From assembly GCA_000165345.1 (NCBI GenBank), contig CM000431.1, positions 96,001-160,000 of the forward strand: a stretch of DNA of 64,000 nucleotides. The letters run 5' to 3'. Below are positions 51,172-56,118 of the stretch, one piece after another (the stretch's first letter is position 1; the number at the start of each line of letters is the position of its first letter). The position numbers and the translations under genes are program-made. The notes below the pieces were generated by a model that was not told the origin of the DNA, made no database searches, and was given only the letters and a program-made list of their open reading frames with translations.

Positions 51172-52470
51172 ATGGGTCACTCAAAGAATAAAAAGAGTAA
51201 CTCTTCGTCTGGCTCAGAAGCTGGAAAGGAATCTGAAAGGTTTATTTCATTCCTCCCAAATAGCGTTGCAACAGTATTGGCCATTTGCTCGTTTATAGCA
51301 GCTTCAATATCTTCAGTTTATTTCAACAATGGTGTTTTTAAGAAGCAAATCAAGTTTCCTGTCTTTGTTTCATGTGCACAACAGCTTGTTGGTATGATTA
51401 TAATGAGCATATTTGGATTAATAAGAATGGCAATCTCAAAATCCTCTGAAAGTGGTAATGGAAAAGATGGAGCTGAGGTACAAGCTAACGGTTCATCAGT
51501 AAGCAGCTGGAAGAAGGTGATGTACGCTATTCCAGTCGCATTCTTTTTCTCTTTCAATATATCATTTAACAATATCTGTTTAACTCATGGTAAAGTTTCA
51601 ACTTATGCTATGGCTAAGTCTACCACACTGATGTGGTCTTTATGCCTCCAATTTTTAATCTTGGGAATTAAAGTTAAGTTGACCTCACTCATTTCTTGTG
51701 CAATCATTATTTCTGGTGTTCTCATTGGAGCATTTGATCCAAAATCACTTGTTTTGGTTTCTTTAATTTATGGTTGTATCTCATCATTCTCTCAGAGCTG
51801 CTACAATATCACTCTCAAGTGGGTTCTCCCTAAGATTGGTAACGATTCTGCAGGTCTTCTTAAATATGTTCAAATGTGGTCAATTCTCTTCTTTTTCATT
51901 CCTATGTTTGGAACTGGAGAAGTTATCCCAGCATTTACAACATCTGGTTGCTTTGATTTCAATGATCTTAATAGAATGATTTATCTATGGGGTCTAATCA
52001 CCACATCAGCTCTTCTTGCCATTGGTGTTAACCAGAGTACTTATGTTGTCATTGGTTTAACCACTCCAGCAACATTCAATGTTTGTGGTTTGGTCAAGCA
52101 AGCCTTACAAACTATCGGTGGAATCTTCTATCTAGGAGAATCTCTACCAACTCAAACAATCATTGCAGTTTGTCTCACATTCTGTGGTTCTGCTTCATAT
52201 ACTGCATTCAATCACTTTGGATCAAAACCATCTATGTCACCTTCTGAATTGAAAGTTGTTGAGGAAAAATACAAGGAAGTTGCAAGACAATCTGTCGGTA
52301 CTGCTTCTGATGTATTTGAAAATGCCCAAGATGACATCCTAAAGAGAAGTGGAAGCAAGACTAAGAACATGATTACACCATTCACCTCAAAAAATCCAGA
52401 AGCCATTCCTCTTAAGGATGATATTGAGGAAGGTCTCCCAACTGGAAACAATAACGAAAACAGAAACTAA
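51172..52470 (+). CDS. nucleotide-sugar transporter (TPT/NST, SLC35-like), paralogue 1 of a tandem triplet
   Basis: ATG at 51172. ~10 TM helices. Conserved blocks KVSTYAMAKSTTLMWSLCLQFLILGIKVKL and TPATFNVCGLVKQALQTIGGIFYLGESL are shared with the two downstream paralogues. TTGGCGCCAA and GTGGCGCCC lie 100-130 nt upstream. Confidence 0.65.
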   Translation: MGHSKNKKSNSSSGSEAGKESERFISFLPNSVATVLAICSFIAASISSVYFNNGVFKKQIKFPVFVSCAQQLVGMIIMSIFGLIRMAISKSSESGNGKDGAEVQANGSSVSSWKKVMYAIPVAFFFSFNISFNNICLTHGKVSTYAMAKSTTLMWSLCLQFLILGIKVKLTSLISCAIIISGVLIGAFDPKSLVLVSLIYGCISSFSQSCYNITLKWVLPKIGNDSAGLLKYVQMWSILFFFIPMFGTGEVIPAFTTSGCFDFNDLNRMIYLWGLITTSALLAIGVNQSTYVVIGLTTPATFNVCGLVKQALQTIGGIFYLGESLPTQTIIAVCLTFCGSASYTAFNHFGSKPSMSPSELKVVEEKYKEVARQSVGTASDVFENAQDDILKRSGSKTKNMITPFTSKNPEAIPLKDDIEEGLPTGNNNENRN

Positions 52471-52745
52471 TTATAGTTCGTTAAATTCTACATTTGTTTA
52501 AATTTCATTCCCCGATGCCTATTCCCCTGTTTTTCTCCATCTAAAACCAATGTTTCTAAACTAATCAATTGCAGAAATATAAACTGTTTGTGGAATTCCT
52601 GTGCCATGTTGCATTCTTTAACAAATTACTTGTTGATGAATTTCCACTCTTATATGTATTAATAATGAAGTAGCCTTATATTACTTCCACCCCACTTTCC
52701 CACACTATTATTTTAAAATGTGCCGCTTTTACCGCCCTCGGTACC

Positions 52746-52811
52746 TTTGCCCGCTAAAAAGATCTTTGTGAATTTTTCATGTGGAATATCCAAAAATTAA
52801 AAGGCGCCTTT
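52746..52811. promoter_or_regulatory. TTTGCCCGC and palindromic AAAGGCGCCTTT upstream of NST paralogue 2
   Basis: Lie 150-210 nt 5' of ATG 52958. Confidence 0.4.
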
Positions 52812-54142: not shown

Positions 54143-54948
54143 GCTATATGTTATGTGTGACCCACCAACCGTACTTAAGTAAAACACATTTTTTTCAAAT
54201 TATTTCCATATTATTGGTATTTGTATTGATATTTCCTAGCCATCATAAAGTTCATTTTTTTTAGTAAACCTCTTAATTTAGTGCTGAATTAGCATTGCAA
54301 GTAGATACTTAATTTTGCTGTGTTTTTGTTCTAGTAGGTGCGGCCCGCCGGCGCGGCATGTGTTTGTGGAACGGGCCCGCCGGATTTGTTGGGTCTTCCA
54401 CTACCGCCTAAAGGAATATGGGTAATTAAAAGACAAAAAAGATGGATTGTCTACTGTATTGCTATTTATTACAAGTAACTTGAATATATAATTTTACATT
54501 CCGTATTTGAAACTAGTTTAACTTATCTTACCTTTCGAGTAATATTCTTTAATTTCTATGTATTATTAGTGAGGAGACAGAGACGTCTAAATTTGGTACG
54601 GTACCACTAGAGACTTAGTAATAATAATTAAATGATATTTAAAACCTATGAAATGTATACCAAGAGAGAAAAAGGAGAAATGAGAAATAATACGTAAACG
54701 TTGCCTGATAATTAATAGTTAATTTAAGCTTCATTCAAATAAATTAAATAGAAGTTTGTATATTAATGGCATGTCTATATGGCCATTTAAATGGATTGTA
54801 AATTCAAATCTCACTAGCAAAGACACATTTAATAATAAAATTATCATTCTACAAACTTTAATAAGAACAGAAAAATTGTTCTAGTTTTGAAGAATTTATC
54901 TGATATTTATTTGAAGAAAGTTTTATTACTTCTGTAGTTAATACGAAA

Positions 54949-56118
54949 ATGGCAGGTGATTTCGGAAACAAGTCAAATTCCCAAGAGGAAGTAAGATACT
55001 GCTTTGGCTTACCAAATGCAGTTGCTGCTCCTATTGCCATGTGCGCATTCATTGTCTCATCTATTGGTTGCGTATACTACAACAAGAAGTGCTACCAAAA
55101 GGATCTTCCATTCCCAGTCTTCATGTCTTGGGCTCAACAACTCATTGGTATGGCTATCATGTCAACTTTCTTAACTATTAGAGGTATTCTCAGTGGAAAC
55201 GAAGAAATGTCCGCAAGTATCCCATTGAGCAAGAGACTTTACAGATATAAGTATGCAGTTTTCGTAGCTTTCTGCTTCTGTATGAACATTTCTTTGAACA
55301 ATATGTGTCTCAAGGATGCCAAGGTTTCTATGTATGCTGTCGCAAAGTCAACAACTGTATGCTACTCACTCCTCTTACAATACTTCTTATTGGGTATCAG
55401 AGCTAAGCTCTCATCTGTTTTGTCTTGCTTCGTTATTATTGGTGGTGTTATCGTTGGTATCTCAGATAAGGAATTCGGTCTTGAGCCACGTTCATTCTTC
55501 ATGGGCACTTTATCATCATTCTTCCAATCTCTCTACTCTGTTGCAGTCAAATACACTGTCCCACACTGTGACAACTCCACTACTGAACTCTTACTCCACG
55601 TACAAGAGCTCTCATGTATCATTCTTTTGGTCCTCTCTGTTGCCTGGGGTGAAACTTCAAAGGTCTTATCATCTAATGTATTTGCTTTCGTCTCTGCTCC
55701 ACTCAGTGCCCTCTGGTTATGGGTTTTGATGGCTGGTTCCGCTATCCTCGCTATCTGCTTAAACCAATGCACATACTTGGTCGTCTCCCTTACTACCCCA
55801 GCTACATACAACGTTACTGGTTTAGTTAAACAAGCCCTCCAAACTGCCGGTGGTTTCATCTTCTGGGGTGACAAGCTCAAGCCAGCTCCAGTTGGCGGTG
55901 CATGCCTCACACTCACTGGTTCAGCCATCTACACACTCACCAAGCTCTGGGATAACACTCCAAAGAACACCAAACAAGAAGAAACCATCAAGGAACAAGC
56001 TCGTCTCTCAGTTGGTACTGGTTCTGATGCCTTTGAAAACCCACTAACCGAGAATGGAAACCAAAACGAGAAGCAACCTCTCATCCCAGAGGACAAATGC
56101 GAGAAGGGTCAGGCTTAA
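54949..56118 (+). CDS. nucleotide-sugar transporter paralogue 3 (C-ending codon bias, likely the highly expressed copy)
   Basis: ATG at 54949. KVSMYAVAKSTTVCYSLLLQYFLLGIRAKL and TPATYNVTGLVKQALQTAGGFIFWGDKL blocks. Noticeably higher GC3 than its neighbours (ctc, ttc, atc, gtc, ggt codons). Confidence 0.65.
   Translation: MAGDFGNKSNSQEEVRYCFGLPNAVAAPIAMCAFIVSSIGCVYYNKKCYQKDLPFPVFMSWAQQLIGMAIMSTFLTIRGILSGNEEMSASIPLSKRLYRYKYAVFVAFCFCMNISLNNMCLKDAKVSMYAVAKSTTVCYSLLLQYFLLGIRAKLSSVLSCFVIIGGVIVGISDKEFGLEPRSFFMGTLSSFFQSLYSVAVKYTVPHCDNSTTELLLHVQELSCIILLVLSVAWGETSKVLSSNVFAFVSAPLSALWLWVLMAGSAILAICLNQCTYLVVSLTTPATYNVTGLVKQALQTAGGFIFWGDKLKPAPVGGACLTLTGSAIYTLTKLWDNTPKNTKQEETIKEQARLSVGTGSDAFENPLTENGNQNEKQPLIPEDKCEKGQA

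Follow-up and report, generated by a model that had tools for sequence, protein, structure and literature searches.

Three neighbouring genes on chromosome 3 of Cryptosporidium parvum, cgd3_490, cgd3_500 and cgd3_510, probably go back to an ancient tandem triplication of one highly divergent SLC35C-like carrier, after which the copies were kept with divided work. The evidence for this reading lies in their paralogy, age and synteny, in a signature of codon selection, and in motif differences among the copies. The genes lie on the plus strand of the window, which is the whole 64,000-nucleotide stretch analysed (GCA_000165345.1, contig CM000431.1, positions 96,001 to 160,000), at the following window positions:

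51172..52470, + strand: copy 1, cgd3_490, TPT-family carrier of 432 aa (Pfam TPT 56.6 bits)
52958..54142, + strand: copy 2, cgd3_500, divergent paralogue of 394 aa (Pfam TPT 32.2 bits)
54949..56118, + strand: copy 3, cgd3_510, 389 aa (Pfam TPT 66.4 bits)

All three same-strand open reading frames lie exactly where the first-pass annotation had placed them, and their lengths of 432, 394 and 389 aa agree with Table 4 of PMC9713705, which lists cgd3_490/500/510 as tandem putative GDP-fucose transporters. The cgd3_510 protein has an exact match on C. parvum CP044420.1. Two TPT genes upstream of cgd3_510 at the C. parvum locus correspond in length and position to copies 1 and 2, copy 1 matching a 432-aa TPT gene two genes upstream of cgd3_510 in CM109963.1 and CP044420.1. 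CryptoDB describes the genes as a “locus of 3 paralogous genes”, and copy 2 is named “putative fucose translocator” in C. hominis, C. ubiquitum and C. canis. The published genes and the array are the same, with no sequence difference, and at the genomic level neither the array nor its annotation is new. What is added here is 1:1:1 orthology across the genus, an analysis of codon selection, copy-specific differences in TM7, and doubt over the GDP-fucose label.

The proposal of a tandem array of paralogous nucleotide-sugar-transporter/TPT-type carriers is borne out by Pfam, in which all three proteins pass the 30-bit cutoff of PF03151 with near full-length matches (profile positions 12-16 to 290 of 291). 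Copies 1 and 3 are 43-44% identical, while copy 2 shares 31-32% with copy 1 and 35-36% with copy 3, in agreement with the earlier view that copies 1 and 3 are closest and copy 2 is divergent. Of two sequence blocks claimed to be common to the array, K(V/L)S(T/M)Y(A/S)(M/V)AKSTT is found in all three proteins; TPATFNV/TPATYNV is restricted to copies 1 and 3, and copy 2 has EPSTFSV in its place. The anticipated topology of about ten TM helices is seen in an AlphaFold2 model of copy 3, the one copy modelled (10 TM helices, mean pLDDT 74, pTM 0.73). Foldseek relates this model with a probability of 1.00 to Vrg4, GsGPT, SLC35B1 and CST, and it is about equally close in fold to GDP-mannose, triose-phosphate and ATP/ADP carriers. 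The three proteins are carriers of the TPT/DMT superfamily (SLC35-like), for which the copy 3 model predicts a 10-TM DMT fold; “nucleotide-sugar transporter” is for them an unverified, family-level label.

The duplication appears to be older than the Cryptosporidium radiation, because the array is present 1:1:1 with the same flanks in C. muris, C. felis and C. ryanae, where the conserved neighbours are an Aa_trans gene, two proteins without a family match and then the PAN protein. The orthogroups are clean, with identities of 66-86% within and 29-45% between them. Copy 1 orthologues in three other species are 70-86% identical and copy 2 orthologues 66-85%; copy 3 is the most conserved, at 74% identity to C. 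muris CMU_038220. An exhaustive HMMER search returned 2274 relatives, with scores falling from 526 to 260 bits directly after the three Cryptosporidium representatives, such that the best match outside Cryptosporidium receives less than half of the bit score reached by the three orthogroup representatives. Sequences nearest to the array come from other Cryptosporidium TPT paralogues and from gregarines and chromerids. In a neighbour-joining tree with saturated distances the triple is monophyletic with a bootstrap of only 58/100, and copies 1 and 3 group together with only 61/100.

Codon usage separates the copies as well. The third-position C fraction rises from 0.185 in copy 1 to 0.231 in copy 2 and 0.321 in copy 3, as compared with 0.07-0.16 in the 15 other long ORFs of the window. 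With these 15 ORFs as reference, a Cochran-Mantel-Haenszel test of C versus T, stratified by codon family, gives odds ratios of 3.27 for copy 3 (p 2.8e-21), 2.07 for copy 2 (p 1.5e-7) and 1.44 for copy 1 (p 0.01), and copy 3 also differs from copy 1 (p 1.6e-6) and copy 2 (p 0.006). The claim that copy 3 is distinct holds; its companion, that copies 1 and 2 share the usage of the rest of the window, does not, since both are intermediate. Judged against window ORFs and neighbours rather than a genome-wide reference set, copy 3 prefers NNC at two-fold Y sites (0.74 vs 0.25), CTC (22/45 Leu codons), AAG (19/23), CAA (14/15) and GGT (20/26), further CCA and AGA, and avoids ATA (0/22). The reported enrichment for C-ending codons is real, but ACC is not clearly among them (5/24 Thr codons, or 21%, vs 14% in the background, with C/(C+T) at 0.26 in both), and the preferred AAG, CAA, GGT, CCA and AGA go beyond that description. 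Across four genomes of differing base composition, NNC at two-fold sites is higher in copy 3 than in copies 1 and 2, which in turn equal or exceed their neighbours; only copy 2 of C. muris departs from this order, lying under its neighbours (0.05 vs 0.09). A similar codon pattern has been tied to high expression in Plasmodium (PMC6206010).

The bias of copy 3 looks like translational selection rather than a GC gradient. That it is a mutational or compositional artefact, arising from a GC gradient, membrane-protein composition or transcription-associated mutation, is extremely unlikely. The spacer 3' of copy 3 is relatively GC-rich (0.405), and the shift in copies 1 and 2 could suggest a regional effect; the upstream spacer, however, has a GC content of 0.30 and the adjoining PAN gene a GC3 of 0.22. 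Copy 3 contains no G-ending codons in four-fold boxes, and its preference for the A- and T-ending CAA, CCA, AGA and GGT marks a specific codon set, not GC enrichment. A local gradient, named beforehand as an outcome that would refute the proposal, is excluded. Stratification by codon family removes amino-acid composition as a cause, and a nearby polytopic amino-acid transporter is free of the bias (OR 0.91). Copy 3 also ranks highest in four species with widely different background GC3, and deamination of the non-transcribed strand would be expected to lower C rather than raise it (argument in PMC6206010). The compositional reading is by these results largely refuted.

Published expression data accord with the proposal that this codon bias is a sign of high expression: in the ileum of infected mice cgd3_510 is the 8th-ranked parasite transcript (PMC8852703), and it represents the transporter group in an oocyst expression table, with a signal of 398.70 (PMC3542205). 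The same kind of source, published data only, indicates that expression differs among the copies, cgd3_500 being reported as a late-male/female-stage gene whose phosphoprotein is reduced (hypophosphorylated) in a CDPK5 knockout (PMC11312397). For cgd3_490 the information concerns location. In the CpGT1-miniTurbo proximity proteome of the feeder organelle it is enriched about as strongly as the bait (5, 7 and 4 peptides vs 0, 0 and 0, p = 0.0079), and cgd3_510 shows a 3-3.8-fold enrichment that is not significant (p = 0.1; PMC10774378). Motif content upstream also differs among the copies, with two TGGCGCC sites about 100-130 bp upstream of copy 1.

These features probably reflect a duplication before the radiation of the genus whose products were retained as three 1:1:1 orthologues in one syntenic block and have since shared out the work. 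Each protein, going by its family, would act as an alternating-access antiporter that swaps a nucleoside monophosphate against a nucleotide-linked solute, which would be a nucleotide sugar or, possibly, a nucleotide. Copy 3 would be the very abundant, broadly expressed form with codons shaped by translational selection, copy 2 a sexual-stage, phospho-regulated form, as reported, and copy 1 the form biotinylated beside the feeder-organelle glucose transporter, and the three may persist by a separation of location or of substrate. The codon gradient, the upstream regions, and the TM7 and tail motifs described below all point toward such sub-functionalisation.

The first-pass annotation had also envisaged a clustered glycosylation supply locus. 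Two features of the neighbours behind it are confirmed: the protein at 56635..58686, proposed to be GPI-anchored, has a PAN domain (PF00024, E 3.3e-10), and the mucin-like gene, the only poly-Thr gene in the window, encodes a T20 tract at 41760-41819. Between that gene and the array, however, lie six genes that are unrelated to glycosylation or lack an assigned function (an mRNA triphosphatase, a LisH protein, a glutathione peroxidase, an amino-acid transporter and two without family match), and the whole block shows plain synteny throughout the genus. A functional cluster is not supported.

The “GDP-fucose” label of the array is an automatic assignment by homology; it is not established and is not to be trusted. 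Vrg4 depends on a TM7 motif of the FYNN type to recognise guanine (PMC6789118). Relatives largely retain its Tyr (110/128) and Asn (103/128), and the full Y-N is present in none of the three copies, which by profile-sequence alignment to Vrg4, rather than superposition, carry Y-V-Q (copy 1), R-N-Q (copy 2) and H-V-Q (copy 3). Each motif is fixed for its copy, both between C. parvum and the C. muris/C. andersoni-type representatives and in four aligned species. The paralogue type cgd4_3110 keeps Y-N-Q. The basic residue of TM4 and the Lys of TM9 are kept in all three copies, copy 2 reading EPSTFSV...K(A/S) in TM9.

These residues bear on the reading in which all three proteins are Golgi or ER antiporters of GDP-fucose or another nucleotide sugar against NMP, feeding lumenal glycosyltransferases, with copy 3 abundant to serve heavy glycoprotein secretion. 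We regard it as plausible, if short of probable. InterPro and TransportDB both call a GDP-fucose transporter, the conserved TM4 and TM9 residues are compatible with it, and the transcripts of mucin and gp40 are, like that of cgd3_510, abundant. A wider-family profile is closest to Vrg4 (E 1.5e-27), against 2.2e-12 for a phosphate translocator and 2e-5 for SLC35B1. Deeper relatives, moreover, carry the motifs VSFYNVARSL, SPLTHNISGTAKA and FYNN, which we take to resemble human SLC35C1. Against this stands the loss from all three copies of a Y-N guanine motif that their relatives conserve, and a profile of the three copies and their orthologues alone, which places Vrg4 (E 0.026) below the hexose-phosphate translocator GsGPT (6.5e-5) and level with the ATP/ADP carrier SLC35B1 (0.015). 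With its Y-N-Q, cgd4_3110 makes a stronger candidate for the canonical function. Predictions make O-fucosylation a minor modification in the parasite, and O-fucose was undetected on abundant glycoproteins (PMC9713705), which fits a top-10 transcript poorly; sequence identity is in any case a poor predictor of SLC35 substrate (PMC6789118). The literature searched yielded neither a measurement of transport, such as GDP-fucose/GMP antiport, nor a knockout or a Golgi/ER localisation for the three proteins; according to PMC9713705, their substrates and cellular sites “remain to be elucidated”.

The proximity data raise another reading, in which copy 1, and possibly copy 3, would sit at the feeder-organelle or plasma membrane and scavenge host nucleotide sugars (GDP-Fuc, UDP-GlcNAc/GalNAc) or nucleotides. 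We hold it to be doubtful. In fold, SLC35B1, an ATP/ADP carrier, is as near as the nucleotide-sugar transporters are, and the base-reading TM7 motif is altered. Acidic-dileucine-type tails are typical of post-Golgi sorting, and motifs of this type are conserved in the C-terminal tails of copy 2 (EKQKLI) and copy 3 (EKQPLI). Yet copy 1, the best candidate, lacks one, its long tail having EAIPLK where the dileucine would stand. The bait-level labelling of cgd3_490 and the detection of cgd3_510 agree with an interface position, and the authors of that study raised the possibility of nucleotide-sugar transporters at the feeder organelle (PMC10774378). The parasite lacks synthesis of GDP-Fuc and de novo synthesis of UDP-HexNAc and “has to scavenge GDP-Fuc” (PMC9713705), and uptake of host nucleotides is demonstrated by genetic evidence (PMC6800313). 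The same proximity list, however, holds Sec16, a listed adapter-protein complex 1 gamma and Rab11, with clathrin reported as enriched (PMC10774378), and the labelling of cgd3_490 could therefore have occurred in transit via the secretory pathway. The enrichment of cgd3_510 falls short of significance, and its transcript is high in oocysts, which have no feeder organelle, arguing against a purely interface role. A more specific proposal is that the proteins are not Golgi GDP-fucose carriers but a genus-specific, SLC35C-derived triad with a remodelled base pocket, at least one of which (cgd3_490, perhaps cgd3_510) imports host nucleotide sugars or nucleotides at the feeder organelle or surface. 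This is unlikely; if true, it would offer a candidate carrier for the genetically inferred uptake of host nucleotides.

A third origin, as sugar-phosphate or phosphate translocators left over from plastid-type pPTs and retargeted after plastid loss, is very unlikely. The Pfam family is named “Triose-phosphate Transporter”, in the PDB the triple-only profile matches the Galdieria translocator 5Y78 best (E 6.5e-5), and the parasite uses host hexose phosphates. With relatives added, GDP-sugar carriers become far closer (1.5e-27 vs 2.2e-12), and the nearest relatives carry the motifs presumed to be SLC35C1-like. The TM9 Lys-Arg of GsGPT (...ntiKRvii...) is K-Q in copies 1 and 3 (...GlvKQalq...) and K-A or K-S in copy 2; in the work describing structures 5Y78/5Y79 this Arg is said to bind phosphate.

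Cryptosporidium is an organism of minimal metabolism that relies on imported metabolites, and we know of no fully effective drug against it. Given a top-ten transcript, at least 74% identity across the genus and only distant relatives outside it, cgd3_510 would be a reasonable lead for drug-target work or biology if its substrate proves essential. The fixed differences in base-reading residues among the copies provide a concrete hypothesis for mutagenesis and transport assays.

Among known carriers, the GDP-mannose transporter Vrg4 of yeast and Candida (PDB 5OGE, 9S35/9S36), and by extension the GDP-fucose transporters SLC35C1/TgNST2, shares with the array the 10-TM DMT fold (target-normalised TM-score 0.76), a Lys/Arg in TM4 and the G-x-x-K region of TM9, but is only 15-16% identical to its proteins, and the Y-N(-N) of its FYNN-type motif becomes YVQ, RNQ or HVQ. 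The TM4 residue is Arg in most relatives (120/136) and Lys in the array, whose proteins further differ from GDP-sugar transporters in their long cytosolic tails with conserved motifs of their own. The Galdieria GPT/TPT (5Y78/5Y79) has Pfam family and fold in common with the array, whereas the organism of the array has no plastid and the TM9 Lys-Arg is changed to Lys-Gln or Lys-Ala/Ser. SLC35B1/AXER, the ER ATP/ADP exchanger (9GRY and others), is as similar in fold as Vrg4 and GPT (target-normalised TM-score 0.74-0.77), with marginal sequence similarity (E 0.015 with the triple profile, 2e-5 with the wider-family profile).

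The array consists of three genes on the forward strand, and each encoded protein scores above the Pfam gathering threshold for the Triose-phosphate Transporter family (PF03151):

51172-52470, forward strand, copy 1 (cgd3_490), ORF of 432 aa
52958-54142, forward strand, copy 2 (cgd3_500), ORF of 394 aa
54949-56118, forward strand, copy 3 (cgd3_510), ORF of 389 aa

The lengths and order of these ORFs agree with cgd3_490, cgd3_500 and cgd3_510, and an identical copy 3 protein is found on chromosome-scale C. parvum sequence (GCA_015245375.1, CP044420.1, ~143-165 kb), where its neighbors are those in the window. 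Copy 1 shares ~43% of its residues with copy 3 and ~32% with copy 2, which bears out the first-pass annotation in pairing copies 1 and 3 and setting copy 2 apart. That annotation had given all three proteins two shared blocks; the KVSTYAMAKSTT/KLSTYSVAKSTT/KVSMYAVAKSTT block is indeed common to all, but TPATFNV/TPATYNV is found in copies 1 and 3 only, with EPSTFSV in its place in copy 2. Simple hydropathy windows gave no clean count of transmembrane segments, and topology was taken from an AlphaFold2 model of copy 3 (mean pLDDT 74, pTM 0.73) with the expected ten transmembrane helices and a disordered C-terminal tail. The array itself is already known, as it is listed among putative GDP-fucose transporters in a 2022 reconstruction of Cryptosporidium glycosylation (PMC9713705); the locus being annotated and published, its novelty is therefore low.

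A first addition of this analysis, drawn from orthologous loci in C. muris, C. ryanae and C. felis, is proof of a triplication older than the genus. The same three genes lie on one strand in each of these species, flanked on one side by an amino-acid transporter gene and two genes without a family match and on the other by a PAN-domain gene, while identity is 66-86% inside each orthogroup (one copy and its orthologues) versus 29-45% across orthogroups. Because array, flanks and orthogroup identities all recur in three other species, the triplication predates Cryptosporidium, of whose phylogeny C. muris belongs to the deepest split, and all three copies are kept under constraint. The C. felis annotation lacks copy 2 and calls two short minus-strand genes there instead; 8005-9189 of the C. 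felis locus L006 (GCA_014529505.1, JABXOJ010000046.1) nevertheless holds an intact 394-aa ORF with 85% identity to copy 2 of C. parvum, and the missing gene is probably an annotation miss. Recent gene conversion between copies can be ruled out, since the longest DNA repeat between them is 33 nt and DNA-level similarity is absent beyond chance-sized matches of 24-33 nt. A neighbor-joining tree groups the three copies in a single clade and pairs copy 1 with copy 3, at bootstrap values (58% and 61%) that are moderate because distances are saturated.

The first-pass annotation had read the array and the glycoprotein genes around it as a functional glycosylation supply locus. Reverse-strand neighbors in the window are as follows:

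26821-40083, reverse strand, giant 4420-aa ORF with two poly-Ser runs (28522-28605)
40878-42917, reverse strand, mucin-like type I membrane protein with a T20 run (41760-41819), a C-terminal transmembrane segment and a cytoplasmic tail
56635-58782, reverse strand, PAN-domain gene of ambiguous start: ATG at 58686 (683 aa, NCBI loci) or GTG at 58782 (715 aa, Logan contigs)

The PAN domain beside copy 3 is real, as is the poly-Thr run of the mucin-like gene, which has no Pfam match and whose proposed upper end (43268) falls past the longest ORF (42917). Between this gene, the only poly-Thr gene in the window, and the array lie six others, which code for an mRNA triphosphatase, a LisH protein, a glutathione peroxidase, the amino-acid transporter and two proteins without a family match. 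A functional glycosylation cluster is rejected because each of these six has either a function unrelated to glycosylation or an unknown one, and the single poly-Thr gene speaks against it as well. In a parasite rich in such genes, one adjoining secreted protein and one mucin-like gene 8 kb away are, we infer, no evidence of clustering; that other species keep this gene order is a matter of synteny across the entire block. Of the proposed sub-functionalized transporters, clustered with glycoprotein genes, what stands is a set of paralogous carriers with a highly expressed third copy and a likely division of labor.

The analysis further contributes a clean demonstration that the codon bias of copy 3 is selective and recurrent across species. 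The fraction of codons with C at the third position rises from 0.185 in copy 1 to 0.231 in copy 2 and 0.321 in copy 3, against 0.07-0.16 in 15 other long ORFs of the window. We compared C with T at the third position by a Cochran-Mantel-Haenszel test stratified by codon family to remove the influence of amino-acid composition.

Third-position C versus T, stratified by codon family
Copy 3 vs 15 window ORFs: odds ratio 3.27, p = 2.8e-21
Copy 2 vs 15 window ORFs: odds ratio 2.07, p = 1.5e-7
Copy 1 vs 15 window ORFs: odds ratio 1.44, p = 0.01
Copy 3 vs copy 1: odds ratio 2.72, p = 1.6e-6
Copy 3 vs copy 2: odds ratio 1.75, p = 0.006

The bias is thus a gradient over the copies and not copy 3 against all else, and copies 1 and 2 do not resemble the rest of the window as had been supposed. 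Copy 3 favors C at two-fold pyrimidine sites (Phe 18/21, Tyr 12/15, Asn 13/18, Cys 11/15, His 2/2), uses ATC for 12 of 22 Ile with no ATA (29% in the background) and CTC for 22 of 45 Leu (background 6%). The C-ending enrichment described earlier holds for these codons but not clearly for ACC, which serves 5 of 24 Thr (21% vs 14% in the background) at an equal C/(C+T) of 0.26. Also preferred are AAG (19/23 Lys), CAA (14/15 Gln), GGT (20/26 Gly), CCA (13/15 Pro) and AGA (5/5 AGR codons), and G-ending codons are absent from the four-fold boxes. Because A- and T-ending codons are preferred too and G-ending ones excluded, the bias is not a GC effect. A local GC gradient, the cause that would have removed selection from the explanation, is ruled out by this codon set together with the surroundings: GC is 0.30 in the spacer upstream of copy 3, GC3 is 0.22 in the adjacent PAN gene, and the nearby polytopic amino-acid transporter gene lacks the bias (odds ratio 0.91). 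In 4/4 species of widely different background composition, NNC is used at two-fold sites more in copy 3 than in the other genes compared.

NNC fraction at two-fold sites
C. parvum: copy 3 0.74, neighboring genes 0.25
C. ryanae: copy 3 0.59, neighboring genes 0.30
C. felis: copy 3 0.84, neighboring genes 0.52
C. muris: copy 3 0.19, neighboring genes 0.09

Published expression agrees with the codon pattern and so supports the view that the bias marks a highly expressed gene: cgd3_510 is the 8th-ranked parasite transcript in the ileum of infected mice, beside EF-1α and actin (PMC8852703), and is the gene given for the transporter group in a table of oocyst expression (PMC3542205). Intense expression and avoidance of wobble decoding are linked, in malaria parasites, to a lower T3:C3 at two-fold sites and a shift of Lys to AAG; strand deamination, the alternative explanation, predicts the opposite sign (PMC6206010).

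Features upstream of the genes and in the protein tails fit distinct regulation and sorting of the copies. The heptamer TGGCGCC resembles an E2F-like motif of Cryptosporidium promoters and has 22 occurrences in the window (0.42 expected): two just upstream of the copy 1 ATG (51044-51071), none upstream of copies 2 or 3, two in the 3' spacer where copy 3 and the PAN gene converge (56326-56356) and 18 at other sites. That spacer (56119-56634) has a GC content of 0.405 overall and 0.49-0.50 at 56200-56399, unusual for non-coding DNA here, and no Rfam match was found from 49 to 60 kb. Unique to copy 3 is a GC-rich island ~600 bp upstream of its ATG (54337-54410; 70% GC over 60 nt in a spacer otherwise of 30% GC) with two exact GGCCCGCCGG repeats 32 bp apart (0.04 expected in 64 kb). 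A patch of CCCGCC with GCATGTG/ATGCGC lies at a similar distance in C. felis (L006 ~9349) and C. ryanae (locus L008 ~9408), and none of the CCCGCC type was seen upstream of copy 3 in C. muris; the island may be a promoter or TSS element of this highly expressed gene. The cytosolic C-terminal tails (55990-56115 in copy 3) hold an R-x-S...D...E...L pattern invariant over 12 sequences, with an acidic-dileucine-type E-K-Q-(K/P)-L-(I/V) in copies 2 and 3 and E-A-I-P-L-K in copy 1, candidate signals for phospho-regulation and sorting.

Published data on the individual copies differ as well. Copy 1 is enriched with a miniTurbo bait on CpGT1, the glucose transporter of the feeder organelle (5, 7 and 4 vs 0, 0 and 0 peptides, p = 0.0079; PMC10774378), and copy 3 appears in the same proximity set at 3-3.8-fold (p = 0.1; PMC10774378 Supplementary Data 1). 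Labeling during secretory transit is possible, because the same set includes Sec16, Rab11 and a protein given as adapter-protein complex 1 gamma, and clathrin is reported among the enriched proteins (PMC10774378). Copy 2 is a phosphoprotein that is lower when CDPK5 is knocked out, and its expression is reported from late male and female stages (PMC11312397). None of the three genes appears in the feeder-organelle/rhoptry preprint or the host-genome screen paper.

Word-indexed protein searches with copy 3 and with a 12-sequence profile returned only one weak Trypanosoma protein from outside Cryptosporidium, and a wider profile gave 8 matches (one Cryptosporidium paralogue, chromerids, a gregarine, transcriptome proteins and one metagenome protein), none a functionally characterized transporter. 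An exhaustive HMMER search of 1.84 billion representatives recovered 2274 relatives, with the three Cryptosporidium orthogroup representatives at 526-646 bits and the next match at 260 bits. The nearest relatives are other Cryptosporidium TPT paralogues (cgd4_3110-like and a C. muris 497-aa type), gregarines (Lankesteria, Filipodium, Porospora), Cardiosporidium, Chromera and Vitrella; 30 matches traced to their organisms came from gregarines, chromerids, Cardiosporidium and one brown alga, and carried no functional names. The motifs of the deeper relatives presumably resemble those of human SLC35C1.

The third addition of this analysis is that a conserved base-recognition motif has been lost in all three copies, differently and fixedly. 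The GDP-mannose transporter Vrg4 needs its FYNN motif to recognize guanine, with N221 determining selectivity for purines (PMC6789118); alignment places this motif opposite residues 217-219 of copy 3, in TM7. Of 128 relatives, 110 have Tyr at position 217 and 103 have Asn at position 218. The corresponding triplets are Y-V-Q in copy 1, R-N-Q in copy 2 and H-V-Q in copy 3, each fixed in the orthologues aligned, including all four species, and with the Gln invariant, so that the copies differ among themselves at exactly this position. GDP-fucose specifically, the homology-based label, is not supported by FYNN, the sole diagnostic motif checked. Together with the published feeder-organelle proximity match, the Y-N losses make a role of the triple in importing nucleotide sugars or nucleotides at the host interface conceivable, though we consider it unlikely.

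In fold, copy 3 is as near to Vrg4 as to the Galdieria triose-phosphate translocator and to SLC35B1, an ATP/ADP exchanger, although these three differ in substrate (TM-scores ~0.76, identities 14-16%), and the best PDB match by sequence varies with the profile, from the Galdieria protein for the triple and its orthologues (profile A) to Vrg4 once gregarine and chromerid relatives are added (profile B).

Profile matches to PDB structures
Galdieria phosphate translocator (5Y78): profile A E = 6.5e-5, profile B E = 2.2e-12
SLC35B1: profile A E = 0.015, profile B E = 2.2e-5
Vrg4 (GDP-mannose): profile A E = 0.026, profile B E = 1.5e-27

Because of this shift to Vrg4, the triple is best placed, by sequence, as a strongly derived offshoot of a GDP-sugar-transporter-like alveolate family, and a nucleotide-linked substrate is the best family-level guess. 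Unlike the triple, the cgd4_3110-type paralogue retains Y-N-Q. At the basic position of TM4 the triple has Lys, where 120 of 136 aligned sequences have Arg, and the Lys of TM9 is followed by Gln in copies 1 and 3 or Ala/Ser in copy 2, where phosphate translocators have Arg.
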